Source of the DNA: a bacterium | Lineage (GTDB): Bacteria > Patescibacteriota > Minisyncoccia > Phycocordibacterales > UBA918 | Assembly (NCBI GenBank): GCA_027487145.1 | Contig: JAIYEC010000070.1 | Location: 4,477 to 68,476, forward strand | Direction: 5' to 3' | DNA: 64,000 bases | Part shown: positions 18,410 through 50,476 of the stretch, in pieces | Layout of the letters: each line of letters begins with the position of its first letter | Numbering within the stretch: the first letter of the stretch is position 1 | The notes under the pieces: generated by a model | What the model was told of the DNA's origin: nothing | Database searches by the model: none | What the model saw: the letters and a program-made list of their open reading frames with translations, nothing else | Made by a program: the position numbers and the translations under genes

Positions 18410-21400
18410 TTATTTATTTTTTGTTATTGAGAAAATAAATTGTTCAGTATCAGTCGCTACCACTTCCCCATCAGTATCAGCGAAGATAAGTTCACTTGCA
18501 CCAACTGTCTTTACCAGCATGTCGTGATAGGTCTCAATGGCAGTTCGGCCAGGATGTGAAGTACTGATGGTAAGGACAATTGCATCCTGGGGCGCAAGAC
18601 CTTCGGTCTTGCGCCGTCCCTGCACTGCTCGCATCAGTTCACGCACATTTCCTTCGGCAATAAGTTCTGGGGTAAGAACAGTATCAATCGAAACAGCATC
18701 TCCAACGATGTACTTCTTGGCATTCATCTCATCCAAAACAATTATTCTCAGTTTTTCAGAAATATCAGAACCGGTGACACTCATGATAGGTTGTCTTACC
18801 TTAATATTTGCTTTTGTTCGAGCATCAAGCGCTTTCGCTACGATATCTCGCACAATGTTCATGTCTTTAATTACTTCTTGTGGGACCAGGGATGTCTCTG
18901 GCCACTTTTCAAGATGGACGCTCTCTGTATCACTATCCTCTTTTACCTGCTGCCACAGGTACTCGGCGTAGAATGGCATCACTGGAGCCATTACTTTAGC
19001 AAGATCTCTGAGGACATAACGAAGAGTTGCAATTCCATTAGTCCTATCATCTACGTTATCCCCCTTTAGCCTGTCCCGACTTCGTCTGAGGTACCAAGTT
19101 GAGAGATCATCAATGAAATCTGTGATTGGTCGGACGGCTTTATCAAGTTCATAGCCCTTGTAGCCTGCAGTCGATTCGTTTACAAGTTCTTGTAAACGAA
19201 TGAGTATCCATCTATCAAGAATATTCGTAGAAGTAGTATCAGCTTTTGTACCATCCCTTACCATCTGAAACATCTCAAATACATTATGTAGCCGTCCGAT
19301 ATTCTTGCGCTGTAGTTCGAGTACTTCTTTTTCTGAGAAGTTGAGGTCTTCTCCCTTTACAATCGGGGCTGAGAGCAGATAGAAACGCATAGCGTCTACT
19401 CCGGTACGATTGGCCAGCTCCATTGGGTCGGGGTAGTTTTGGAGTGACTTACTCATCTTCTTGCCATCCTCCGCGAGTGTGAGTCCATTTACCACTACAT
19501 TCTCAAACGGACTCTTTCCAAAAAGTGCTACTCCAAGAACAATCAATGAATAGAACCAGCCACGGGTTTGGTCGAGTCCTTCAGCAATAAAGTTGGCTGG
19601 GTAACAGGTTTTGAGAAACGCTTCAGGATTTTCTCCCATGAAGTGATGCTGAGCGTACGGCATCGATCCACTCTCAAACCAACAGTCAAACACATCTGGC
19701 ACACGTTCGAGCTGTACGCCATTTTCAAACAACGTAATGTTATCGATGTACGGACGGTGGAAGTCGAGTTCAAAGTGGTCGTTGTGTGGGAAAGGTGTGA
19801 AATCAATCTCGTGGAGACTACCAGTTTTAATATCACCTTCGGTATCCCAGCCTTTGACAATATCTTTATCAGAGACTCCTTCAGCTCCCCACTTCAAAAG
19901 GCGAAGTGGTAAACCATGTGAGACAAACAAAATATTTTTGCCTTGGTGTTTTGCTTCAACCTCAAATAGTACTTCGAGCATTCGACGCTTAATCTGCTGC
20001 CAACTTTCTCCACCCTCTTGATGAGCTGTCATTTTCTTATCTGGGGGGAGTCCGTCACGATAGGCATACCATTCTTCAACCGGACGACCCTCTAATACTC
20101 CGCCTTCATTTTCACGCAATCTCTCATCGACGATTACTTGCTCAGGAGAAAGACCAAGTGTCTGTGCTACTAACGCGGCCGTATCTTTCGTTCGCTTAAG
20201 TGGCGAGACATACACAAGATCGATTTGTTTATCGGCTAGTTCAGTGATAGTGGCTGCTACCTGCTCCTTCCCTCTTTCAGTCAGGGTATATGGATCTGAT
20301 GGAGATGAACTTAGAATGTGGTTGATGTTATGTTCTGCCTCACCATGACGCATCATGAAAAAGCGGTTGTTGTTTTTTGGTACATATGCCTGAAGTTCAG
20401 CTAGTGATCCGAATACCTTATAAGACTTCGTTTCAGGATTTCGCCAGATCGGAAGCGGTGCACCCCAATAACGCTGACGAGAAACCGCCCAATCGCGAGC
20501 TCCCTCAAGCCACTTCCCAAAGCGATTGCTTCCCACATGGTCTGGGACCCAATTCACGGTATTATTTGCTGCAAGCAAATCATCTTTAATGGCTGGAACA
20601 TTAACGAACCACGATGTAGTCGCGTAATTAAGAAGTGGTGTATCACAGCGCCAACAGTGCGGGTAGCTGTGGGTGATATTTTCTTTTTTTACAACCACTC
20701 CCTTGGCCTGCAAAAATCGCAACACTTCAATGTCGGTATCTTTATGATCGACCTCCGCTTTATCGTCGTCCTTTGGCTTCACCAGACGACCGGCAAAATC
20801 GGTGACGAAGTCTTTAAAGCGCCCTGCCTCATCAACGTGATGGAAGATTGGTACGCCATGGGCTTGAGCCAGCTTCATGTCGTCATCACCATAGGCTGGT
20901 GCAATATGTACCGCACCAGTACCGTCCTCTCCTACTTCGACATAGTCAGCATGACGAATAACCCAACCGTTCTCAGCTCCTTCAAGTTGCTGTTCTTGGA
21001 TATACGTAAATGGTGGCTGGTATCGCTTTCCAACTAAATCACTTCCTTTCATTTCTTCTACCACCTCGTGAGCGATATCACCTAGTTGGGCTAGTCGGCC
21101 TTTGGCTAAGATGTAATATTCACTCTCAACTTTTACCTTTACATAGGTAATGTCGCTATGCACCGCAGCTGCGATATTTCCTGGCAGGGTCCATGGCGTA
21201 GTCGTCCAAACAAGGAGACTCGTGTCAGTTGCATTACCTGAATCATCTAAGAGTGGGAGCTTCACAGTCACGGCAATATCTTTGATGTCTTTGTATCCTT
21301 GGTTTACTTCAAAGTTAGAGAGCGTCGTCCCACAGCGTGGACACAAGTGCATAGTCTTGAACCCTTCAAATACCAATCCCTTATCATGAAGTGACTTAAA

Positions 21401-21931
21401 CACCCACCACACACTTTCGGTATAGGTACTATCCATCGTCTTGTAGTCGTCAGCCATATCAACAAACCGACCCATTCGGGGAATAATCTCTCGCCAATCG
21501 TCAGCGTAGCGCATCACTGCACCGCTCGCTTTTTCGTTAAAATTCTTCACGCCGTACTCTTCGATGTCACGCTTGGTACCAAGTCCAAGTTCTTTTTCTA
21601 TCAGGTTTTCAAGTGGCAAACCGTGACAGTCCCACCCCCACTTTCGTGCGACCTGATAGCCATTCATCGTCCAAAAACGCGGAATAGCATCTTTGATGGT
21701 TCCAGCCAAAATATGCCCATAGTGTGGTAGACCGGTGGCAAAGGGTGGTCCATCATAAAAAACAAATTGTCCTACCGGCGCGGCGCCAGCTGGTGTCTCT
21801 AACGTCTTATTAAAAATATCTCGCTCTCGCCAAAACGTGAGCATAGCTTCTTCACGAAGTGCAACGTCACTTTTTGGGACATCAGACACCACTTCAACTG
21901 TGTCATTTTCACGACCATGTATTTTGTTCAT
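18410..21931 (-). CDS. ileS: isoleucyl-tRNA synthetase (type 2 / eukaryote-like) with an inserted histidine-phosphatase (PGAM-like) domain
   Basis: PFATGLPHYGH (HIGH), KMSKS, CP1 editing region, WAVSRQRYWGAPLPIW and DCWFESGSMPYAQ. An insert of about 190 aa between the last two carries RHGEAEHN, SPLKRTKDTA and FVSHGLP. Confidence 0.9.
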   Translation of the reverse strand: MNKIHGRENDTVEVVSDVPKSDVALREEAMLTFWRERDIFNKTLETPAGAAPVGQFVFYDGPPFATGLPHYGHILAGTIKDAIPRFWTMNGYQVARKWGWDCHGLPLENLIEKELGLGTKRDIEEYGVKNFNEKASGAVMRYADDWREIIPRMGRFVDMADDYKTMDSTYTESVWWVFKSLHDKGLVFEGFKTMHLCPRCGTTLSNFEVNQGYKDIKDIAVTVKLPLLDDSGNATDTSLLVWTTTPWTLPGNIAAAVHSDITYVKVKVESEYYILAKGRLAQLGDIAHEVVEEMKGSDLVGKRYQPPFTYIQEQQLEGAENGWVIRHADYVEVGEDGTGAVHIAPAYGDDDMKLAQAHGVPIFHHVDEAGRFKDFVTDFAGRLVKPKDDDKAEVDHKDTDIEVLRFLQAKGVVVKKENITHSYPHCWRCDTPLLNYATTSWFVNVPAIKDDLLAANNTVNWVPDHVGSNRFGKWLEGARDWAVSRQRYWGAPLPIWRNPETKSYKVFGSLAELQAYVPKNNNRFFMMRHGEAEHNINHILSSSPSDPYTLTERGKEQVAATITELADKQIDLVYVSPLKRTKDTAALVAQTLGLSPEQVIVDERLRENEGGVLEGRPVEEWYAYRDGLPPDKKMTAHQEGGESWQQIKRRMLEVLFEVEAKHQGKNILFVSHGLPLRLLKWGAEGVSDKDIVKGWDTEGDIKTGSLHEIDFTPFPHNDHFELDFHRPYIDNITLFENGVQLERVPDVFDCWFESGSMPYAQHHFMGENPEAFLKTCYPANFIAEGLDQTRGWFYSLIVLGVALFGKSPFENVVVNGLTLAEDGKKMSKSLQNYPDPMELANRTGVDAMRFYLLSAPIVKGEDLNFSEKEVLELQRKNIGRLHNVFEMFQMVRDGTKADTTSTNILDRWILIRLQELVNESTAGYKGYELDKAVRPITDFIDDLSTWYLRRSRDRLKGDNVDDRTNGIATLRYVLRDLAKVMAPVMPFYAEYLWQQVKEDSDTESVHLEKWPETSLVPQEVIKDMNIVRDIVAKALDARTKANIKVRQPIMSVTGSDISEKLRIIVLDEMNAKKYIVGDAVSIDTVLTPELIAEGNVRELMRAVQGRRKTEGLAPQDAIVLTISTSHPGRTAIETYHDMLVKTVGASELIFADTDGEVVATDTEQFIFSITKNK

Positions 21932-27687: not shown

Positions 27688-30282
27688 CTAACGTTGTTCC
27701 TCTTCTTGTCTCAGAAGGGCCAATTCCTTCATCAGTCGAACAATTTCTCCAAGGAGAACGACCATCGCTTTCTCTCTCGCTAGTGGTGCATCTGGGTTTT
27801 CAAAATATTCTGGGTACTGTTCTTTTAAGACAGCTTCAGCTGTGGGACTCGTGATAGTACGAAGTTCATCAATACGTTTGGTAGTTTCTCTTACTCTTGT
27901 ACTAGTCGTATTACCTGGGGCTTCAACATGCGACAAAGATACCTGTGTCAGGGTGGGAGTTTTTGTATCGTTTGTTGTACCGAGAGTTGCTCGCCAAGTG
28001 AAAGAAGTACCCTCAAGAGCAAGTTCTTCAAATGTCTCAGGTGAAAAAGGAACAAACGTAACACCTCCATCAATACTGTACTCATAGGCAACACTGGTAT
28101 CGGCAGGAATAGTTACGCTTGGAACAAACGTGGTAAAGCGACGCTTCGTATCGAAGGTTCTTGTCTCACTTGTGTATGTGAAGGAAGACTGATATGGACC
28201 GTTATATACAACCTTAGAAACTTTTGGTGAAGTGCTTGTGTCATCAGTCTCAAGCTCAACCCGATACTGAAGCCATGGATTTGAGCCAAGGGCATTTAGC
28301 GTACAGCTAGTGTAGCTGACGCAAGTGGTCCAACTGCTCCACTCGCCCATAATATCTGGTGTGCTAATTTGAATGTAGTCAATTTCAAGAGTGGTAGCAT
28401 CAAGTTCAGTACCTGAATTACTATAGGTATACGCATCAACTAAGATCATAGAGAAGGGTTGTTGCGCATCAAAAGTTATGGTCTGCCACTCATCAGTAGT
28501 TGCCTGTTTGGAAACATAGAACTCGAATTCATCAGTAGCTAGCCCAATATCCATCAAATCAGTTGATCGATTAAGTACCCTGTACCGCATGGTAACGACA
28601 GAACCAGATTGAAAATAATTATCAGCAAAACTGGTATCAATACCGAAATATGAATATTCAGGAGAGCCTAACGGTTCACCACTAAGACGAAGGACACCAT
28701 TAGTTGCAGTAGCAGTTTGCCAATTATACGCTGAACCATAGCCATAAGGATCGGCAGTATAGCTATCAATGGTATTGAGTTCATCCTGCCACACTGCGTT
28801 AGTTGTACCGGTACGGTATGAGAGCATTATTGAATGATCGTCAGTCGTTGAAGCAGTGACAGAAAGGGATGTGGTAGGAGTAGAGGCGATAAGGCGGGGG
28901 CTACCAAGATATGTACCGTCTGAATTATAAACACTTGGAGAAATAACAGAGAGACCATTAGAAGTGCTCACATATAACCAATCGTCTTCAAGAAACGAAT
29001 GGTAGACCGAATTGCTTACCAATGAAGGATTGCTGCTAACTCCATATTGAGCCACTAAAGTGTCATCTGTGGGACTTATAGTTCCTTGGGTATTTATAAC
29101 AGAGACCCCTATCCCACTTACATAGAGATAGTCATCATCGAGAAATACGTGGTTAACGTAATTCTCTAAAAGAGGAGGAGTACTTCCTTTATCGTAGCGA
29201 GTGACTAACGTATCATCTGCAGGATTATCGAAAGTTCCTTGCGTATTAATTACCGTAAGTCCATCACTTGCTACATACAATAGATTCCCATCCAAAAAAG
29301 AAAAATCTATTCTGTTTGTGGGTAAAGATGGAGTACTTCCGGTGTAGTAGCGAGTTACATACGTATCATCTGCAGGTGAAAGGGTTCCTTTAGTATCAAT
29401 CACTTCCACTCCCCCATATGAATTGAGGTAGAGGTAATTACCATCACGAAATGCCTGTGTAACCCGGGAATTAGCGAGGGACGGTGTACTACCTGTGTCG
29501 TACCGGATAACGAGCGTATCATCAGCTGGTGAGAGTGTACCTTGCGAATTTATCACATTAAATCCGTTGGAGGTGCTGATATATACCAGATTACCCTCTT
29601 TAAACGCATGGCTTGTACAGCCTGTACTGATAGAAGGACTACTTGTATTGGAATACTTCACAAGAAGAGTATCATCAGAAGGGTTGGTTGTACCCTTTGT
29701 ATCAACGACATGGAGACCACCGCCTCCGCCGCCACACCATACACTCATATATAGTAAATCACCTTCTTTAAAAGCATTATAGACAAAATTATCACTCAAC
29801 GCAGGTGAACTTCCTGTATGGTATCGAGCTACGAAAGTATCGTCGGAGGGGTCAGATGTGCTCTTCGTATCAAAGACGTATACCCCAGCATTTCGGGTAC
29901 TTATATAAACTAACCCATTTTCAATGAAGGAATGCGTGATGTAGCCGTAATCATCCGGTAATCCTGGATTCGTTGTCTTAGTATACGCATACCCTTTACT
30001 TATTTCTATTCCTCCATCTTGAAGAAAACTAGTCATCGCAAAGTAGTTTGACTTATTATTTCCAACGGAAAAATCTTCAAGAGTATCATCACTTGTGGAG
30101 GCGGTAGATGTAAGCGAGACTGGTGCTTCACTAAAATCCCAGGTGGTTGTCTCGGTCGCAGTCACGGCAGATGAAAGTTGTAAAAAAATTATAGGAGTGA
30201 GAATAAGTACCAAAAATAGCGCGATCTTAGCTCGACGCTCTTTGAGAACAATGGTATAAGGAGTGAAAATAGACCGTGACAT
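27688..30282 (-). CDS. large secreted repeat protein (about 8 tandem repeats of about 47 aa, LVIVD-like beta-propeller repeat) with a C-terminal coiled coil
   Basis: N-terminal signal/anchor, then repeats of the form DDT[LFY]V.RY.TGS.P.L..N.V...F.DGN.LY.S..G..VI.T.GT, Cys-free and Thr/Ser-rich. Confidence 0.55.
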   Translation of the reverse strand: MSRSIFTPYTIVLKERRAKIALFLVLILTPIIFLQLSSAVTATETTTWDFSEAPVSLTSTASTSDDTLEDFSVGNNKSNYFAMTSFLQDGGIEISKGYAYTKTTNPGLPDDYGYITHSFIENGLVYISTRNAGVYVFDTKSTSDPSDDTFVARYHTGSSPALSDNFVYNAFKEGDLLYMSVWCGGGGGGLHVVDTKGTTNPSDDTLLVKYSNTSSPSISTGCTSHAFKEGNLVYISTSNGFNVINSQGTLSPADDTLVIRYDTGSTPSLANSRVTQAFRDGNYLYLNSYGGVEVIDTKGTLSPADDTYVTRYYTGSTPSLPTNRIDFSFLDGNLLYVASDGLTVINTQGTFDNPADDTLVTRYDKGSTPPLLENYVNHVFLDDDYLYVSGIGVSVINTQGTISPTDDTLVAQYGVSSNPSLVSNSVYHSFLEDDWLYVSTSNGLSVISPSVYNSDGTYLGSPRLIASTPTTSLSVTASTTDDHSIMLSYRTGTTNAVWQDELNTIDSYTADPYGYGSAYNWQTATATNGVLRLSGEPLGSPEYSYFGIDTSFADNYFQSGSVVTMRYRVLNRSTDLMDIGLATDEFEFYVSKQATTDEWQTITFDAQQPFSMILVDAYTYSNSGTELDATTLEIDYIQISTPDIMGEWSSWTTCVSYTSCTLNALGSNPWLQYRVELETDDTSTSPKVSKVVYNGPYQSSFTYTSETRTFDTKRRFTTFVPSVTIPADTSVAYEYSIDGGVTFVPFSPETFEELALEGTSFTWRATLGTTNDTKTPTLTQVSLSHVEAPGNTTSTRVRETTKRIDELRTITSPTAEAVLKEQYPEYFENPDAPLAREKAMVVLLGEIVRLMKELALLRQEEEQR

Positions 30283-42695: not shown

Positions 42696-44381
42696 TTACT
42701 TCTTCCCTTCGTTTTCTTGGAGCTTCTTGCGAACCAATTGCTGGGCTGCGTTCATTGAGTGCTGGTAGTAGAGACTTTTTACTCCCTGCTTCCACGCTTG
42801 GAGGTAGAGCGCGTTGATATCCTTTACCGGCGTATCTGGCGCCACCATGATGTTGAGTGACTGCGCTTGGTCAATAAACTTCTGTCGATCTGCCGCTTGT
42901 TCGATTACCTTTGATTGATCGATTTCGGCAAAGGTTCGGTAGATGGCTTTTTCTTCATCTGAAAGACAATCGAGATGTTGAACCGAACCATCGTTATCGC
43001 GAATTGAATCCCAGGTTACCTTATCGTCGTGACCCTTCTGCGCCAAAAGTGCTTGAAGCGTAGGGTTCTTAATGGTTACCTTCATCTTGGCCACGTCTTT
43101 GACGTAACAGTTAGACCAGATTGGTTCGATACCTTGTGATACTTGTCCGAGAATAAAAGCAGAGGAGGTGGTTGGAGCAATCGCAATTAAGGTGGTGTTA
43201 CGACGACCGTAGCCCTTGAGTACTTCTGGCTCACCGAGCGTAGCTGCGAGTTCTTTGGTAGCAGCGTCAGCTTTATCTTTAATAAGCTTGAAAACTTCTT
43301 TATTGAGAGTAGCGGCTTCTTCGCTTTCAAATGGCAAGCCTTTTGCCTGAAGGAGTGAGTGGTATCCAAGAACACCAAGACCGAGAGCTCTATTTGCTTT
43401 AGCGAAGTTGTACGCTCGCTCCATAAAGGTGAAGGCGCGACGCTTTTCAGCTTCTTCGTGGTCACGCAGTGCTTCTAACTTTACGATAAATTCTTCCATG
43501 ACGGCATCCAAAAATGCTGTCATTGTTTCTACCAAGTCAGTGTCCTTCCAGGCGTCGTAGTGAAGAAGGTTGACTGATGAGAGACAACACACAAATGACC
43601 AGTCTTCCTTACTTGGAAGCATGATTTCACTACACATGTTACTCGCGTGAATGCGGAGCTTCTTGTCTTTATAGACATCAACCGTGTTATTGTTAGCAGT
43701 ATCGCTAAACATAATATATGGGTACCCCATTTCTCCCCGTCGTTGAATGATACGAGCCCAAACTTTTCGCTTGGCTTCATCCCCATCAATCATGGACTGC
43801 ATCCATTCGTCCCCTACTGTCACACCGTGGGTGAGCTTCTGAATTGGATTTCCTTCAGTTCCGATATCGAGGAACTCCATGATGTCATCGTGCTCTGCAG
43901 GGAGGTATGGTGAGAAGTGTCCGCGACGAACTGATCCTTGTGAGACCACCACGACGAGAGTCTCAAAGAGTTGCATAAAGTGGACTGAACCAGATGAGTA
44001 CCCGTTGTCATTTCCAATTGATGCTCCACGTGGACGAAGTGCTCCAAAGAATCCAGAACACCCACCACCAAACTTACTCATCATTCCCACCTCAGCGTTG
44101 GTGTAGAGAATGTCACCCATGTTGTCATCAACGTATGAGCCAAAACAGCTAATTGGAAGCCCTTTTGGATCACCAAAGTTAGCCCACACCGGTGAGGCGA
44201 GTGAAATCCAGCCACGACTCATGTAGTCAACAAACTTATCGGCAAAGCCGTCTTGTTTGAGATATTTTTCTGCAGTTTCCGCGATAACGCGAATGCGTTC
44301 TTCGGCTGTTTGACCCGGGGCGAGGTATCCTCGAGCAAGAAATCCGCGACTATTTTCGTTCAACCAGTACCATGGTTCCAT
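42696..44381 (-). CDS. nrdA: ribonucleotide reductase class I large subunit without an ATP-cone
   Basis: Motifs NMCSEI and PTTSSAFILG are present. The protein starts directly at the region after where an ATP-cone would be, 561 aa. Confidence 0.8.
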   Translation of the reverse strand: MEPWYWLNENSRGFLARGYLAPGQTAEERIRVIAETAEKYLKQDGFADKFVDYMSRGWISLASPVWANFGDPKGLPISCFGSYVDDNMGDILYTNAEVGMMSKFGGGCSGFFGALRPRGASIGNDNGYSSGSVHFMQLFETLVVVVSQGSVRRGHFSPYLPAEHDDIMEFLDIGTEGNPIQKLTHGVTVGDEWMQSMIDGDEAKRKVWARIIQRRGEMGYPYIMFSDTANNNTVDVYKDKKLRIHASNMCSEIMLPSKEDWSFVCCLSSVNLLHYDAWKDTDLVETMTAFLDAVMEEFIVKLEALRDHEEAEKRRAFTFMERAYNFAKANRALGLGVLGYHSLLQAKGLPFESEEAATLNKEVFKLIKDKADAATKELAATLGEPEVLKGYGRRNTTLIAIAPTTSSAFILGQVSQGIEPIWSNCYVKDVAKMKVTIKNPTLQALLAQKGHDDKVTWDSIRDNDGSVQHLDCLSDEEKAIYRTFAEIDQSKVIEQAADRQKFIDQAQSLNIMVAPDTPVKDINALYLQAWKQGVKSLYYQHSMNAAQQLVRKKLQENEGKK

Positions 44382-44421: not shown

Positions 44422-45735
44422 TTAAAAGAGGTCTTCGCTGGTTACGCTCGCTGAGCGCTTGTTGTAGTTGATTGATCGCTTCTGGAAGAAGTCTACGTGC
44501 TTGGTAGCAATTACTTCAGCATCAAACCAGTCAGTCTCTTCAAGGAGTGCGTCACTGACGTCGAAGATTCGAGGCATACCAATTGAGGCGAGCGAATTAT
44601 TGAAGCGGTGCTTGATGAATTCTTTTACGTTAGCAGCTGGCAAGAAGCTGAGTTCACCGGCTTCGTAAATCCAATCTACAATCTTGCTTTCTGCTTCATA
44701 TGCTTCACGACATGCTTCTACCACCTTCTGTCGGCATTCATCGTCAAACCATTCTGGATGTTCGCTCTTGATGATATTGATGACATCAATCCCAAACATT
44801 CCGTGCAAATTCTCTTCCTTTGAAGTTGCTTCCACAGCATTTGAAATACCCTTAAACAGATTACGATGCTTGTTGAAAGACATCATAATGAGGAACTGTG
44901 AGAAAAGTGAGACGTGCTCCACAAAGAGTGAGAAGAGCATGACTGACTGGAAGTAGTCCTTGTTTTCCTGGGTTCGTGAGAGATCAATTACCTTTTCGAG
45001 GTAATTCATTCGCTCTTGCATGACCGGGATATCCTTAATCTTTCGGAATTCATCATTAAGACCGAGAATTTCAAGCAAGTGTGCATACGCATCAGCGTGA
45101 CGAACTTCTGATTCTGAGAAGGTTGCGCCTACTGCTCCAATTTCTGGCTTTGGCATCTTTTTGTAGATGTCTCCCCAGAAGGTCTTTACTGCTACCTCAA
45201 TTTGAGCAATAGCAAGCATAGCGTTCTTAATAGCGCTTCGCTCTGCTTCGTTTACATTGACATGGAAGTCCTGAACATCAGAGGTGAAGTTAAATTCGGT
45301 GTGTACCCAGTATGAGTGACGGACCGCGGTGGTGTACTCGTAGAGTTCTGGATACTCATACGGTTTGAAGTTTTGCCGACGAGCGAAGATATCTCGTTCG
45401 CGAAGCTTCTTGCGCTCATTACGATAGATGATGTACGCCTTCGCGGTGGTAAAGTACCCCTTCTCCATGAGCGCTTGCTCAACCAAGTCTTGGATTTCTT
45501 CCACTGCTGGACTACCATCAATACACTTGTTAGCAATTTCACTACCGGTCTCTGCTGTTCCTGCCTGCACACACATAGCGATCACCTTCTGGTGAGCTAG
45601 TTCGGCTACTTCAATGGCGGCATCACGATTTCCTTCTCCGGTTTCGACGAGAGCCTTTGCGATAGCACTTTCAATTTTTGAAATATCGAAGGGCTTTAGT
45701 TGCCCGTCGCGCTTTCGAATGGTTTCGATGTTCAT
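44422..45735 (-). CDS. nrdB: ribonucleotide reductase small (radical-generating) subunit with an N-terminal ATP-cone domain
   Basis: ATP-cone (ETIRKRDGQLKPFDISKIESAIAKAL ... VEEIQDLVEQALMEKGYFTTAKAYIIYR) followed by a ferritin-like R2 core (EAERSAIKNAM..E..H..AY). The ATG at 45735 was preferred over the upstream ORF start. Confidence 0.85.
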   Translation of the reverse strand: MNIETIRKRDGQLKPFDISKIESAIAKALVETGEGNRDAAIEVAELAHQKVIAMCVQAGTAETGSEIANKCIDGSPAVEEIQDLVEQALMEKGYFTTAKAYIIYRNERKKLRERDIFARRQNFKPYEYPELYEYTTAVRHSYWVHTEFNFTSDVQDFHVNVNEAERSAIKNAMLAIAQIEVAVKTFWGDIYKKMPKPEIGAVGATFSESEVRHADAYAHLLEILGLNDEFRKIKDIPVMQERMNYLEKVIDLSRTQENKDYFQSVMLFSLFVEHVSLFSQFLIMMSFNKHRNLFKGISNAVEATSKEENLHGMFGIDVINIIKSEHPEWFDDECRQKVVEACREAYEAESKIVDWIYEAGELSFLPAANVKEFIKHRFNNSLASIGMPRIFDVSDALLEETDWFDAEVIATKHVDFFQKRSINYNKRSASVTSEDLF

Positions 45736-46030
45736 ACTAATAAACTTGAATTGGTAAAAAGATGAATTATCGCGCACGAACATAATTGGTGGAAGACCGC
45801 TGCAATGAATTGCGCAGCACAATTAGGTTCACAAGCGATTAGGTCGCGACTAACACGCACGCGTTCTTTAAAAACGCGCTTGAAACTCGATATGAGTTTG
45901 TGTGTCTTACCTCCGACACACGAGACCTCGTGTGGTTTCATTACTATAGCACTGAGGTGAGAAGCTTGGCTATTTTATTGACGCCAAACGGAGGCTATTT
46001 TTCGTTAGCTATCCACAGTATTCTGGGGAC
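45736..46030 (-). promoter_or_regulatory. long structured 5' leader upstream of nrdB-nrdA
   Basis: About 290 nt without a credible ORF. It contains several hairpins, including cacacgag..ctcgtgtg and cgcgtt..aacgcg. Confidence 0.35.
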
Positions 46031-46097
46031 ACTGTAATACAAAATAATTTTGAGTTTTGCCTAGATTTGCAAGATGGTAAAAATGTCACGTGATAGA

Positions 46098-46135
46098 GAA
46101 AAAGCACCGCGACCATTGGTCGCGGTGCTTTTTAC
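46098..46135 (-). terminator. rho-independent terminator after mscL
   Basis: aaaaagcaccgcgaccattggtcgcggtgcttttt. Confidence 0.75.
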
Positions 46136-46139
46136 CGGC

Positions 46140-46532
46140 TTATCGCCTGAGGCTGTCTCGAATTTCCATAAGAAGCTTCACTTCTTCAGATGGTTCTTTT
46201 GGTTTTTCTTCTTTTGCAGCTTCTTCTTTCTTTACTACTTTCTCCTGAGCCTTATTAATACCCTTTACTACCATAAAGATAGCAAACGCGACGATAATAA
46301 AGTCGATTACCGATTGAACAAAAACACCGTAAGTCACAACTGCGTCGCCAAGGGTGTATGACAGTCCTGAAAAATTCACTCCGCCCATGAGCAGTCCAAT
46401 AAGTGGCGTGATGATGTCTGTCACCAAGGACGACACGATTTTTCCAAAAGCGGCTCCAATAACGACAGCAACAGCGAGATCAAGGACGTTCCCCTTCATG
46501 GCAAACGCCTTGAATTCATCAATAATTTTCAT
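46140..46532 (-). CDS. mscL: large-conductance mechanosensitive channel
   Basis: [33 protein letters not shown].. and a charged C-terminal helix. Confidence 0.9.
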
Positions 46533-46578: not shown

Positions 46579-47715
46579 TTAATGATGGTGGTGATGGTGG
46601 TGCGACGAATGATCATTCATGTCAACGGTGCGAGACCGGTAGTACCACGCAGCTACTGCAGTGGTGGCTGGAACAGCCATAATCAGTCCGATACTCCCTA
46701 CAATAATCCGGGTAAGTTCTGCTGCTACCACTTCTTGATTGAAGATAGCAGTCAGGTCAGTCCCCGCTTTCGCGTAGAGCAATATAAGCGGCAATGAAAC
46801 TCCGACATATGCGAGTGCGAGTGTATTAACAATCGAACCAATATGATCTCGCCCTACCACCAGCGCCCGATTATAAAGGTCGCTAAAATTAAAGTCTGGA
46901 TTGGCTGACTTAAGCTGCGCTACCACCGAGGTCTGGGTAACCGCGACGTCATCAAGCACTCCAAGAATACCGATAATAATTCCCCCGAGAAGCAGGCTGG
47001 CTAAATCAAGCGAGCCGTTGGTAGCAAAGTTAAGATAGACCGATGCATCATCACTAAAACCAGTCAGGTGCATACTCCGGACACTCACGTATGAGATGAT
47101 ACATGTCACCAAGACTGCGCTCATCGTACCTAGATACGAAATACAAGCCCGAGCATTAAAGCCGTGAGTTCCAAAGAGCGCAAACGCCATAATAACAGCG
47201 GCAATTCCTAACGTTGTAAGAGCAGGGTTGTATCCAGCCAGGAGCGCTGGCACAAGGAGAAATATAATTGCAGCGATACTTACCCCAAGTGAAAAGAGCG
47301 CTCGTACCCCTTGCCAACGAGAGATAAAGAGCAGTAGCCCAACAAAGAGTCCGAAGATAACTATGAGCGTTGGTCGTCGTTCATACGCTGAAAACGTCAC
47401 ATACTCATCCCCATTGATAGTGACCACTCGATTCACAAAAATGTCATCCCCGACCTCCAGATGTATCACTTCGGCCGTCATTGCTACCACCTCTCCTTTT
47501 TTATCTCCTTCTTCAAGAAGGATCCGTAATTCTTGTACTGTTGTAGTAGTATCAGTGCCGGTCACCTCACGAACGTCTTCACTCACCACTTCAAGGACCG
47601 TAGCTTTGACTGTCTCTTTTACATCTTGATGAACCTCTTGTGCAAAAACTGGTGAGGTACAAAAGAACGTCATAACGAGTGAGACAAAAATCCTAGAAAA
47701 TAAGACGCGCAACAT
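46579..47715 (-). CDS. YibE/F-family-like membrane protein with a natural C-terminal poly-His tail (HSSHHHHHHH)
   Basis: Signal peptide plus extracytoplasmic domain, then about 6 TM helices. The last codons are CAC/CAT x7 before the stop. Confidence 0.55.
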   Translation of the reverse strand: MLRVLFSRIFVSLVMTFFCTSPVFAQEVHQDVKETVKATVLEVVSEDVREVTGTDTTTTVQELRILLEEGDKKGEVVAMTAEVIHLEVGDDIFVNRVVTINGDEYVTFSAYERRPTLIVIFGLFVGLLLFISRWQGVRALFSLGVSIAAIIFLLVPALLAGYNPALTTLGIAAVIMAFALFGTHGFNARACISYLGTMSAVLVTCIISYVSVRSMHLTGFSDDASVYLNFATNGSLDLASLLLGGIIIGILGVLDDVAVTQTSVVAQLKSANPDFNFSDLYNRALVVGRDHIGSIVNTLALAYVGVSLPLILLYAKAGTDLTAIFNQEVVAAELTRIIVGSIGLIMAVPATTAVAAWYYRSRTVDMNDHSSHHHHHHH

Positions 47716-47895: not shown

Positions 47896-47970
47896 TGGCG
47901 GCTATAGTATAATGGTTAATGCATCGGTTTGTGGTACCGAGAATTCGGGTTCAATTCCCGGTAGCCGCCC
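47896..47970 (+). tRNA. tRNA-His (anticodon GTG), with encoded G-1 pairing to C73
   Basis: Folded manually. A 7-bp acceptor stem (gcggcta/tagccgc) with an extra G-1:C73 pair, D arm gtat/atgc with a GG loop, anticodon stem tcggt/accga with loop ttGTGgt, T arm tcggg-ttcaatt-cccgg, and a trailing CC. Confidence 0.85.
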
Positions 47971-48045: not shown

Positions 48046-48963
48046 TTAAACAAGATTTAGAATCTTCGCAACCAGATATTCTGTATCAGAAAAAAATTCA
48101 GATATTTTATTATTCTGGTCTTTATAACCATTTTGCGGGAAAAAACCAAAGTGAATTAACCTATTGCGAATTTTTTCTATCTTTTCTGCGTTTTCTTCTT
48201 CCTTACCATCAAGAAAGTATTCATTTCTGACAAATCTATATTTTTGCTCCACGCTCATTTTTGATATCTCTTTATTATTCATCAATAAAGAATGGTGTAG
48301 TGAAAAAATATGTTCCCAAATTGACCAAGATAGAATAAAAGCGGATTCTGTACACTGGCGTTTTTGCGCCTGAGCAAAAATTAAAAGAAATGCGCCTTTA
48401 CTATATTTCTTTTGCCATACCTCATCCTTAATAGTGGAACATACTTTATTTACCGCGATTTCTAGCCCCTGATCAAATCTGAGCCATTCAAATGCACTAA
48501 GCCCATTTATCTCGACCTCAGAAATGATTTCTCGTGTTTGATTATTTATAGCTTTTCCTACAGGTAGAACAAATCGACCAAAATTACCCCTATGTTGCCT
48601 TGGATCTTCAATAATCTGTATTCTACTTTCAGCGTCACGCCATGTCTTTGCAATAATATTTCGCCCAGTAAGGAGTGATAGAACTAGTAGTATATCTAAA
48701 AATTCTCTAGGTTTTTGGGAACCTACTTCTATACTATTCCACGGCAAAATTGCAACTTTTTGTCTTGAGGGCAACAACGCCAAGGCAGTCACCCGATGAC
48801 TGCCTTGATTGACCTCAAATGAAGTGCTGTTGTACGAGTGCGACAATTCTTTTAATATTTTTTTGTAATCAGGAGCCTGCTTAAAACAATACTCACCTAC
48901 ATTCAGCTCTAAAACATTATCTGGAAACTCAAGGTTGTATATTTCAATCTGAACCCTATCCAT
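48046..48963 (-). CDS. hypothetical protein (island cargo, 305 aa)
   Basis: AT-rich ORF with no recognisable motif. It is the last gene of a three-gene operon. Confidence 0.5.
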   Translation of the reverse strand: MDRVQIEIYNLEFPDNVLELNVGEYCFKQAPDYKKILKELSHSYNSTSFEVNQGSHRVTALALLPSRQKVAILPWNSIEVGSQKPREFLDILLVLSLLTGRNIIAKTWRDAESRIQIIEDPRQHRGNFGRFVLPVGKAINNQTREIISEVEINGLSAFEWLRFDQGLEIAVNKVCSTIKDEVWQKKYSKGAFLLIFAQAQKRQCTESAFILSWSIWEHIFSLHHSLLMNNKEISKMSVEQKYRFVRNEYFLDGKEEENAEKIEKIRNRLIHFGFFPQNGYKDQNNKISEFFSDTEYLVAKILNLV

Positions 48964-49288: not shown

Positions 49289-50476
49289 TTAATTCTTTGG
49301 TGTCAGAAATCTGAAACTTACTCCAGCGGCTTTATAAACATGATCTAGACCTTCTGGTGTAAAGTCGCCTCCAAACAATCTCATTGAACCATCATTATCC
49401 ATACACACTTGCATAAACATAAAATTGTCTTCAATTTTATACATAAAATGCCAAGTACCGACAAGTTTATTCCTATGTTCTTTTAAGAACACTAATATTT
49501 GCGACTGAGTGAAACAGAGATTGTTTAAATCTTTATCTATAGATTTAAACATCTTGTATATCGTTGAATCATTAATAAGATAATGTACTTGTGCTTCAGC
49601 AATGTTTGTGTTTTTTGAAACAAAGTCTGATTTATTTATATCTTCTTCTTCAAAAAAGATAATTTTAAAACTTTCTTTTGAGTTTGCAATATTTATTTTT
49701 CCGTCTGTAGGTGGTATTTGAAAAACAGTATCTGTTTTTATAAGTACATTATTGGGTATATTTTTGATGTCATTGTCTTTTTCCCAAATGATTTTTGATT
49801 CAGTAGAAATATCAGAACTATTAAGTTCTTTAATTTTATACTCTTCATCTTCTTGTTTGCCATAACTTTTTTGAACCTCCTTTGAAATTTTTTCAAAATC
49901 AACATCTTCCTCAATATCTGGTAGATATCCGAAATCGTATTCAATTTTTTCATCTGAACAATCCTGGGAGCCTGTGCCTGCAAGATAATCTTCTTTTGAA
50001 ATTTCTTTAGAGCCGAATAGCTTCTCAAATTTCTCTCGGATAAGAATACCTCCTGTTGGATCTGATTTTCCTATCGACTCTATTTTGGCAATATACTTTT
50101 CATAGCTTGGATAACCATTAAATAGCCAAAAACCAAGTTCTTGAATATTTTGAACCATGTCTGGTGCATTCTGATTAGCTAAATCAATATATAAGTAATA
50201 TGCAGCCTTAATGTATTTTTTAGGGTATGGCAATAATGACATTGGTACTAATGTCATTAATGGATGTAGGGGTAGATGCTCGTTAAATAATTTCAACTGG
50301 AATGAATTAAAATCTTTAAACACCTTCTCTGCGAGGGCATAGTTTGGTTCTTTATATTCTGGGACTGATTCTTTAATCAGATTATAAGCTTTTATTAAAT
50401 CTGAATTATCATACTGATTCACTACCTCCCTATGTGAAATTTTATTTTTAAATAAGCCAAACATATTTTTTATCAT
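49289..50476 (-). CDS. hypothetical protein (island cargo, 395 aa)
   Basis: Very AT-rich with no recognisable motif. It is the first gene of the operon. Confidence 0.5.
   Translation of the reverse strand: MIKNMFGLFKNKISHREVVNQYDNSDLIKAYNLIKESVPEYKEPNYALAEKVFKDFNSFQLKLFNEHLPLHPLMTLVPMSLLPYPKKYIKAAYYLYIDLANQNAPDMVQNIQELGFWLFNGYPSYEKYIAKIESIGKSDPTGGILIREKFEKLFGSKEISKEDYLAGTGSQDCSDEKIEYDFGYLPDIEEDVDFEKISKEVQKSYGKQEDEEYKIKELNSSDISTESKIIWEKDNDIKNIPNNVLIKTDTVFQIPPTDGKINIANSKESFKIIFFEEEDINKSDFVSKNTNIAEAQVHYLINDSTIYKMFKSIDKDLNNLCFTQSQILVFLKEHRNKLVGTWHFMYKIEDNFMFMQVCMDNDGSMRLFGGDFTPEGLDHVYKAAGVSFRFLTPKN

Follow-up and report, generated by a model that had tools for sequence, protein, structure and literature searches.

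The closest described relative of the system analysed here is the class Id ribonucleotide reductase (RNR) of Leeuwenhoekiella blandensis, NrdAi/NrdBi, in which the radical-generating subunit NrdB carries an N-terminal ATP-cone in front of a ferritin-like core and the short catalytic subunit NrdA has none. The study of this enzyme described ATP-cones on NrdBi, with a partner NrdAi that never carries a cone, and showed that dATP drives L. blandensis NrdB into inactive tetramers (Rozman Grinberg et al., eLife 2018; PMC5794259). It identified Asp73, Met80, Lys89, Ile92, Ile93, Arg95 and Arg102 as cone-interface or nucleotide residues and Glu170, Lys174, Trp177 and Tyr207 as unusual metal-site residues, counted 93 RefSeq cone-NrdBi sequences, mostly from Flavobacteriales, and reported that every species then known with a cone-bearing NrdB also encodes other RNRs (PMC5794259). 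Here we analyse an nrdB-nrdA operon, and the leader RNA that precedes it, in a 64-kb stretch of Patescibacteria DNA (the window: all 64,000 nucleotides analysed, from contig JAIYEC010000070.1). Overall, we consider it likely that the window holds a class Id nrdB-nrdA operon that combines control of the enzyme through a cone with a structured cis-acting leader RNA.

Patescibacteria have tiny genomes (roughly 1 Mb in the window's lineage), a small number of regulators and mRNAs that mostly lack leaders, and they rely on hosts for their nucleotides. To our knowledge, no riboswitch senses a deoxynucleotide, the RNR-linked ones sensing 2′-deoxyguanosine (2′-dG) or cobalamin. The concept of a stabilising Shine-Dalgarno (SD) sequence, STAB-SD, reportedly goes back to work on Bacillus by Agaisse and Lereclus in 1996 (cited in PMC7509114). 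The 2′-dG (mfl) riboswitch of Mesoplasma florum, a reduced-genome bacterium like those of the window's lineage, and cobalamin riboswitches are, like the RNA described here, structured RNAs in the 5′ untranslated region (UTR) of RNR genes, with a presumed feedback on deoxynucleotide supply (PMC5435998). NrdR, whose system also includes an ATP-cone, acts on DNA through a protein; its operator consists of two 16-bp palindromes about three helical turns apart that overlap the promoter (PMC9110341). In full-text searches of the literature, we found no report of an RNR leader RNA, a natural riboswitch or another cis-regulatory RNA for Patescibacteria.

Comparative sequence analysis indicates that the leader of the window's nrdB is a conserved, covariation-supported structured RNA, and the same evidence makes it very likely that this RNA is functional and acts in cis. 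Its parts, in the order of transcription, are as follows.

45943..45951, minus strand: TG-extended −10 element TGcTATAGT (hexamer 45948..45943), from the promoter scan
45769..45934, minus strand: structured leader RNA, whole motif of ~170 nt (match of covariance model R1 at 45759..45939, 158 bits, E 9e-37)
45917..45934, minus strand: P1, 5′-terminal hairpin CACACGA-GGUC-UCGUGUG (7 pairs, 96% paired, 5 changed on both sides)
45900..45916, minus strand: near-invariant strand UCGGAGGUAAGACACAC with the SD-like GGAGGU, 5′ strand of helix P2 (most conserved columns of the 82-sequence alignment)
45859..45899, minus strand: P3a and P3b, variable hairpins capping P2 (hairpin folding in homologues)
45841..45856, minus strand: 3′ strand of P2, GUGUUAGUCGCGACCU (P2 pairs 91-94% paired, 8 of 10 changed on both sides)
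45769..45839, minus strand: domain 2, with the three-part helix P4a-c, the variable P5 hairpin and a conserved internal loop on the 3′ side (P4 covariation)
45798..45789, minus strand: internal loop of domain 2 (J5/4), GGUCUUCCAC (consensus CUUCCAC or CACCAC)
45736..45768, minus strand: A/U-rich tail from the motif to the nrdB ATG, containing UUUUUACC and no SD

A scan of species-representative genomes found 253 relatives of the locus, and the best 80 were inspected as loci (designated by L numbers below), all of them from metagenome-assembled genomes labelled Patescibacteria, Paceibacteria, Parcubacteria, Kaiserbacteria, Nomurabacteria or similar. Across these 80 loci, BLASTN of the leader revealed a block of 37 nt, some 200 nt upstream of the ATG, that is more than 90% identical where the other leader sequence cannot be aligned; by fuzzy matching, the block is found in 44 loci. 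From 18 close leaders (alignment A1) we wrote a structure of 34 pairs (P1, P2a, P2b and P4a-c) and built the covariance model R1. In ~55 of the 80 genome loci, loci without the GGAGGUAAGACAC block among them, the model places the motif directly upstream of nrdB (E values from 1e-39 to 1e-3), and it also recovers the motif in metagenome loci.

The covariation of the motif was evaluated in alignment A2, which comprises 83 rows, one spurious reverse-strand row included, and was fitted to the written structure. Standard pairs fill 94% of its paired cells, compared with 27-49% in a control in which the partners are slid by 1-3 columns, and 27 of the 34 pairs are changed on both sides. The number of cells changed on both sides is 240, versus 77 ± 8 in shuffles, and the covariation score is 0.322, versus 0.17 in shuffles and 0.04-0.08 with slid partners; for both measures, none of 500 shuffles reaches the observed value. 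Because A2 was fitted to the written structure, the test was repeated with an independent alignment, built with MAFFT from 38 non-redundant full leaders, in which RNAalifold again found P1, P2 and P4. In addition, the leader folds more stably than its shuffles (z = −3.25 over 381 nt; z = −3.8 over the 172-nt core). When all columns were compared with one another for covariation that might reveal pseudoknots, the known pairs ranked at the top, clade effects and wobble pairs dominated the rest, and no new long-range pair could be claimed.

Domain 1 comprises P1 at the 5′ end and the long helix P2 built by the near-invariant UCGGAGGUAAGACAC that follows it, and domain 2 is a long, interrupted hairpin, P4/P5, whose C-rich internal loop is conserved. 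The P1 stem is kept by compensatory variants (CACACG/CGUGUG, CGCACG/CGUGCG and CACUCG/CGAGUG), and its loop differs among homologues in sequence and in length, from 2 to more than 15 nt. Similarly, 14 of the 17 pairs of P4 show compensatory changes, for example AUCGC/GCGAU, AUUGCG/CGCAAU and AUCUUUC/GAGAGAU. P3 and P5 keep their shapes though their sequences vary. Specifically, among 77 unique sequences, the unconserved P3 region folds into two hairpins in 58 and one hairpin in 18 (mean z −2.15), and P5 is a single hairpin in 75 (mean z −3.7). The strand UCGGAGGUAAGACACAC can alternatively pair with the 3′ strand of P1 to form a hairpin. Its GGAGGU (45914..45909) is separated from the predicted 5′ end by ~22 nt and from the nrdB ATG by ~175 nt, and the 15 nt that follow it contain no ATG, GTG or TTG. 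The near-invariant GGAGGU is the only strong SD-like sequence; the ATG of nrdB lacks an SD of its own. The tail between the motif and the ATG measures 30-60 nt in most homologues.

The motif is tied to one operon. The exact 18-mer GTGTCGGAGGTAAGACAC occurs once in the window and in 67 metagenome contigs, 51 of which carry nrdB 120-308 nt downstream, while 10 end too early to judge and 6 are chance matches in GC-rich coding DNA without P1; viral contigs scanned for the 18-mer gave 0 matches. Chance matches apart, the motif is thus exclusive to nrdBA leaders across the 80 genome loci and the metagenome contigs, and it adjoins nrdB even where mscL, the upstream neighbour in the window, is distant or absent (L018, L043 and L007). 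The most distant cone-nrdB loci (L063-L080), whose NrdB is ~63-65% identical, have no motif. The sequence-only reading of this DNA had proposed the leader as a possible regulatory RNA element, and the strong covariation together with the exclusive association with nrdB argues for that proposal.

The motif occurs in several variants. In type A, to which the window belongs, the P1 loop is short and variable and the internal loop of domain 2 reads CUUCCAC or CUACCAC. Type B carries CUCCA in its P1 loop and CACCAC in the internal loop, and its P2 is contiguous over 16-17 bp and pairs GGAGG. The short type (L033, L036, L038, L040, L043 and L045) has no domain 2 and gains an extra helix, AUGUGUG:CGCACAU, that encloses P2. 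In several short-type loci, the bases that directly precede the AUG can pair with the invariant UUGUAGUCGCGCAC, each time with a different sub-segment of it, and this pairing may be the expression platform of the short type.

The leader RNA matches no described family and apparently represents an undescribed RNA family of a known general kind, the structured RNR leader. At the gathering score, Rfam 15, whose models include yybP-ykoY and T-box besides those named below, finds only two tRNAs in the window. With E values up to 10, the leader yields only terminator-driven matches at 46022..46200 and nothing in 45736..46021, and the purine, 2′-dG and cobalamin models in particular give no match to it. 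Nor do related leaders match any Rfam 15 family, either in 15 loci at the gathering score or in 12 loci at E up to 1. The RNA differs from the mfl and cobalamin riboswitches, with which it shares no sequence or structure match, and it has two domains in ~170 nt and no detected terminator or platform.

The motif is predicted to start where the transcript starts. A promoter-like element, TAGCCA-18-TATAGT with a TG extension, lies upstream of the leader RNA. In 57 of 81 homologous leaders, the TANNNT hexamer ends exactly 8 nt before the first pair of P1, in 78 of 81 it ends 5-9 nt before it, and a TG extension is present in 54 of 81. This fixed spacing of the −10 box to P1 argues that the RNA begins at the 5′ end of the transcript, with a predicted start 1-2 nt before P1 and a predicted 5′ UTR of ~200 nt (~45936..45736). 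The 404-nt mscL-nrdB intergenic region (46139..45736) holds the promoter-like element, ACCACACGAGGUCUCGUGUGUCGGAGGUAAGACACAC, the sequence after ACCACACGAGGUCUCGUGUGUCGGAGGUAAGACACAC, and one further element.

46099..46133, minus strand: intrinsic terminator of the upstream mscL, outside the leader (perfect 17-nt inverted repeat, then a U run)

A hairpin-rich leader of about 290 nt had been proposed from the sequence alone; the hairpin-rich structure holds, whereas the length, given the mscL terminator and the promoter, shrinks to the predicted ~200 nt. Most ORFs (open reading frames) of at least 150 aa in the window lack an SD and have, 7-10 nt before the ATG, a −10-like box (TATACT, TATAGT, TACAAT or TAGAAT), which suggests that the mRNAs of this genome are mostly leaderless and makes the ~200-nt nrdB leader exceptional. 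Just upstream of the nrdB promoter, the 9-mer AAAATAGCC occurs twice on the minus strand (45968..45976 and 45993..46001, 25 nt apart), and boxes resembling it, AAAATA(G/A)CC, occur in close relatives. The repeats may act as a −35/UP-like element or bind a factor.

The conserved palindromes might be DNA operators overlapping the promoter, either NrdR boxes or the site of another repressor, and not RNA structure at all. The P1 palindrome CACACGAGGTCTCGTGTG lies just after the −10 box and resembles an NrdR box in its ACAC-N8-GTGT outline, and NrdR boxes, which are likewise RNR-specific elements at the transcript start, typically overlap RNR transcription starts (PMC9110341). However, the spacer between the P1 half-sites varies with the loop from 2 to more than 15 nt, and its centre is GC-rich, not AT-rich; such a centre, changing in length, is not compatible with a fixed dimeric operator. 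Moreover, there is no second box, the window contains no match, at up to 3 mismatches, to the 16-bp NrdR-box consensus acaCwAtATaTwgtgt, and compensatory changes extend to helices up to 140 nt apart. We therefore reject the NrdR-box-like operators that had been offered as another explanation of the leader, and regard any DNA-operator explanation as very improbable. A tblastn search with E. coli NrdR found nothing at E <0.2 in the 64-kb window and no nrdR in the flanks of the 80 loci.

Two of the cone-nrdB loci that lack the RNA motif (L075 and L077) carry two NrdR-like palindromes 33 bp apart, ACACAATATATAGTAT and ATCATACTATATGTTGAT, ~70-110 nt upstream of nrdB, and four more loci (L068, L069, L076 and L079) carry another palindrome, ATAGATGAGTATCTAT. 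The restriction of tandem NrdR-like boxes to the motif-less L075 and L077 suggests that in the window's clade the RNA fills the regulatory niche of NrdR.

A protein-coding origin of the conservation was also considered, since a 69-aa ORF (45941..45732) runs through the leader and its TGA overlaps the nrdB ATG as ATGA, which resembles translational coupling. Close relatives, however, have indels of 1 and 2 nt in the most conserved block that shift the frame of this ORF, as do the length changes of the P1 loop, no more than 17 of 82 homologous motifs have a frame of any kind without stops, and the substitutions in the leader are compensatory for base pairs. The indels and the rarity of stop-free frames argue that the conservation is not protein-coding, and a small protein or leader peptide encoded here is hardly credible.

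The operon downstream of the leader has the following parts.

44422..45735, minus strand: nrdB, class Id radical-generating subunit, 437 aa (Pfam domains, 5OLK match, homologue-aligned ATG)
45406..45723, minus strand: ATP-cone domain of NrdB, residues 5-110 of the 437-aa protein (PF03477)
44557..45378, minus strand: ferritin-like metal-binding core of NrdB (PF00268 Ribonuc_red_sm, E 4e-61)
42696..44381, minus strand: nrdA, class Id catalytic subunit, 561 aa, without an ATP-cone (Pfam, PDB matches)

The nrdB ORF as listed runs over 44422..45822 from a TTG (466 aa), and we place the start at the ATG at 45735, the point from which homologues align, which gives 437 aa. The Pfam ATP-cone PF03477 matches residues 34-139 of the 466-aa ORF with an E value of 5e-20 and 72 bits (cutoff 25.8). 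NrdA contains only the all-alpha N domain (lgN) and the barrel by Pfam, and an in-frame stop 4 codons 5′ of its ATG leaves no room for an N-terminal extension with a hidden cone. The genes are ordered nrdB then nrdA with a 40-nt spacer. The cone on NrdB, the cone-less NrdA and the gene order had all been proposed by the sequence-only reading and are borne out, the cone both by the Pfam match and by its alignment to a characterised cone.

That alignment, to the L. blandensis cone-NrdB structure 5OLK, spans the full length from residue 3 to the C-terminal DLF (E 8e-165), with an overall identity of 59% (42% within the cone, 64% within the core). The solved structures closest to NrdB are 5OLK, 6SF4, 8DQ3 and 6CWO (E 1e-165 to 1e-100), and the next ones, chlamydial-type beta chains included, have E values of 1e-27 or worse; for NrdA, the best are 6DQX (E 3e-205) and 6DQW. 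The counterparts of the L. blandensis cone-interface and nucleotide residues Asp73, Met80, Lys89, Ile92, Ile93, Arg95 and Arg102 are all identical in the window's NrdB, as are those of the metal-site residues Glu170, Lys174, Trp177 and Tyr207 (L. blandensis numbering). Common to the two systems are thus the dATP residues of the cone, those of its dimer interface, and the class Id metal site, with its Glu-x3-Lys, Trp and a Tyr that makes no hydrogen bond with the metal site. The metal-ligand motifs EVRH, EH and EExxH are kept relative to 5OLK, with IEVAVKTFW, EVRH..AY, VEH and KEE..H conserved. By these sequence comparisons, the pair is a class Id (NrdAi/NrdBi, manganese-type) RNR.

The cone of the window's NrdB is ~13 residues longer than that of L. 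blandensis. The insertion lies between helices (AAIEVAELAHQ...AGTAETGSEIANKCIDGS; 45540..45620, NrdB residues ~39-65), and the length is common to the Paceibacteria homologues, all of 437 aa.

The inferred control of enzyme activity through the small subunit, by dATP-driven oligomerisation of NrdB and shut-off of the enzyme, is thus expected from close homology, and the earlier reading was right in this respect. The cone-on-NrdB arrangement, however, is an enzyme type already characterised in L. blandensis and is not new. What is new on the protein side is the host, which belongs to the Patescibacteria/Paceibacteria and not to the Flavobacteriia, and a spread wider than that counted in 2018, an extension of a known kind. 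Cone-bearing nrdB is directly followed by cone-less nrdA in all 80 inspected loci, so that a large Patescibacteria clade seems to have cone-on-NrdB class Id as its standard form, and the enzyme itself adds little. The feature that sets the operon apart is the long structured leader, of which the 2018 study describes none for the flavobacterial enzyme.

Taken together, the comparisons allow a two-level scheme. At the enzyme level, the NrdB cone would bind ATP or dATP, dATP would convert NrdB into inactive tetramers and turn the enzyme off, and NrdA would have no switch of its own. At the level of expression, the operon would be transcribed from its own promoter with a ~200-nt 5′ UTR whose first ~170 nt form the two-domain RNA, and this RNA probably regulates nrdBA, acting in cis, we hypothesise, as a sensor or switch. 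Domain 1 contains four mutually complementary strands, CACACG, CGUGUGUC, GACACAC and GUGUGU, and these CACAC/GUGUG strands allow two mutually exclusive folds. In fold I (P1 and P2), GGAGGU would be buried; in fold II (GUGUGUC-GGAGGUAA-GACACAC), a hairpin loop would present it. Binding of a ligand or protein to the conserved loops would shift the balance between the folds and alter mRNA stability or translation.

Such complementarity suggests a two-fold switch, and the need to keep four strands mutually complementary would explain why the stems are conserved in sequence. The minimum free energy structure of the window sequence by itself is fold II, whereas the comparative consensus is fold I, and the mean energies of constrained domain 1 over 62 sequences are nearly equal, at −29.2 (fold I) versus −30.4 (fold II) kcal/mol. 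Two further contacts were evaluated and not retained. Kissing between the P1 loop and J5/4 (GARG with CUUC, or GGUA with UACC) was dropped, since the top pairs of P1 would open and the loops vary within a clade in which the J5/4 loop is constant. Pairing of the type-B P1-loop CUCCA with GGAGG is unsupported, as relatives without GGAGG keep CUCCA.

Several observations weigh against a regulatory switch in the leader. The energy difference between the folds has a standard deviation of 7.6 kcal/mol, which makes bistability an inconsistent property. A search for an expression platform found no terminator after the motif and no RNAalifold consensus structure in the tail or around the AUG, and the complementarity of the tail and AUG region to the GGAGG strand, to both P4 strands and to the J5/4 loop is indistinguishable from shuffled controls (z ~0; positive control −4.4). 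In addition, five relatives (L022, L023, L025, L031 and L042) lack GGAGG and retain P1 and domain 2; with GGAGG lost in these and domain 2 lost in the short type, no single module is universally required. Finally, the strong local synteny implies that part of the sequence conservation of the leader reflects shared ancestry. The order yibEF-mscL-nrdB-nrdA-M10 protease-SIMPL is widespread, with mscL in 55 and yibEF in 38 of the 80 loci; the gene upstream of nrdB in the window is MscL by Pfam.

What the RNA senses, and whether it senses a small molecule, is where two readings part. The first is a sharper version of the explanation we favour, namely a metabolite riboswitch of a new class that would sense a nucleotide-related ligand, such as a deoxynucleotide or deoxynucleoside, or else Mn2+, and feed back on RNR synthesis. 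The size of the RNA, its two-domain architecture, the invariant unpaired nucleotides beside covarying helices and the presence of a covarying, aptamer-like structure in a 5′ UTR with an exclusive tie to one gene family would all suit a riboswitch. There is also a precedent in the 2′-dG riboswitch before the RNR beta subunit of M. florum (PMC5435998), and NrdR boxes, not found in the window, are present in motif-less sister loci. Yet the terminator, AUG-region pairing and tail complementarity that were checked revealed no expression platform, the most conserved stretch lies in stems and not in junctions, the association with a single gene points to no ligand, and modules are lost in some lineages. 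A metabolite riboswitch is therefore possible but somewhat doubtful. We regard as unlikely the narrower proposal of a class confined to Patescibacteria that directly senses dATP, another dNTP or a deoxynucleoside and replaces NrdR in reduced genomes.

Alternatively, the leader may sense no small molecule and serve as an mRNA stabiliser of the STAB-SD or 5′ stem-loop type, or as a ribosome- or protein-binding element. As in the Bacillus stabilisers, a GGAGG close to the 5′ end of a long leader, and remote from the start codon, is combined with a 5′ hairpin. Specifically, P1 starts 1-2 nt after the predicted transcript start, and the SD-like GGAGGU, at least 175 nt from the AUG and with no start codon behind it, is unused for initiation. 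The SD-poor, leaderless character of the rest of the genome and the failure to find an expression platform point the same way. Unlike in STAB-SD leaders, however, GGAGG is part of a conserved helix, a second covarying domain is present, and the motif belongs to one operon across many genomes. A stabiliser would account neither for the covarying 70-nt domain 2 and its conserved internal loop, nor for the burial of GGAGG in the long P2, nor for the restriction to one operon; GGAGG is also missing in some relatives. We hold this alternative only tentatively. Under the reading we prefer, a structured RNA that acts in cis on nrdBA, the output could be STAB-SD-type mRNA stability, ribosome loading or Rho access.

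The conserved 170-nt RNA of the RNR operon is a testable candidate for the tuning of deoxynucleotide supply in Patescibacteria. If it binds a nucleotide ligand, it would represent a new riboswitch class; if it directly senses a deoxynucleotide-pool signal, RNR would be controlled twice by the same kind of signal, at the level of expression by the RNA and at the level of the enzyme by the NrdB cone. The leader might also be put to use as a native switch of expression in a group at present without genetic tools, a need noted previously (PMC11665869).

Elsewhere in the window, upstream of mscL, a YibE/F-like membrane protein (46579..47715, minus strand) has a natural C-terminal poly-His tail, HSSHHHHHHH; a metal-related role beside a Mn-dependent RNR is only speculation. 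Three ORFs have no Pfam match, 27688..30282 (864 aa), 48046..48963 (305 aa) and 49289..50476 (395 aa), all on the minus strand, and the latter two adjoin a tRNA gene (47898..47969). In a 1173-aa class I aminoacyl-tRNA synthetase (18410..21931, minus strand; tRNA-synt_1 and Anticodon_1, IleRS-like), the catalytic domain is split by the insertion of a histidine-phosphatase domain, His_Phos_1 (residues 525-690, E 6e-35), an unusual fusion.

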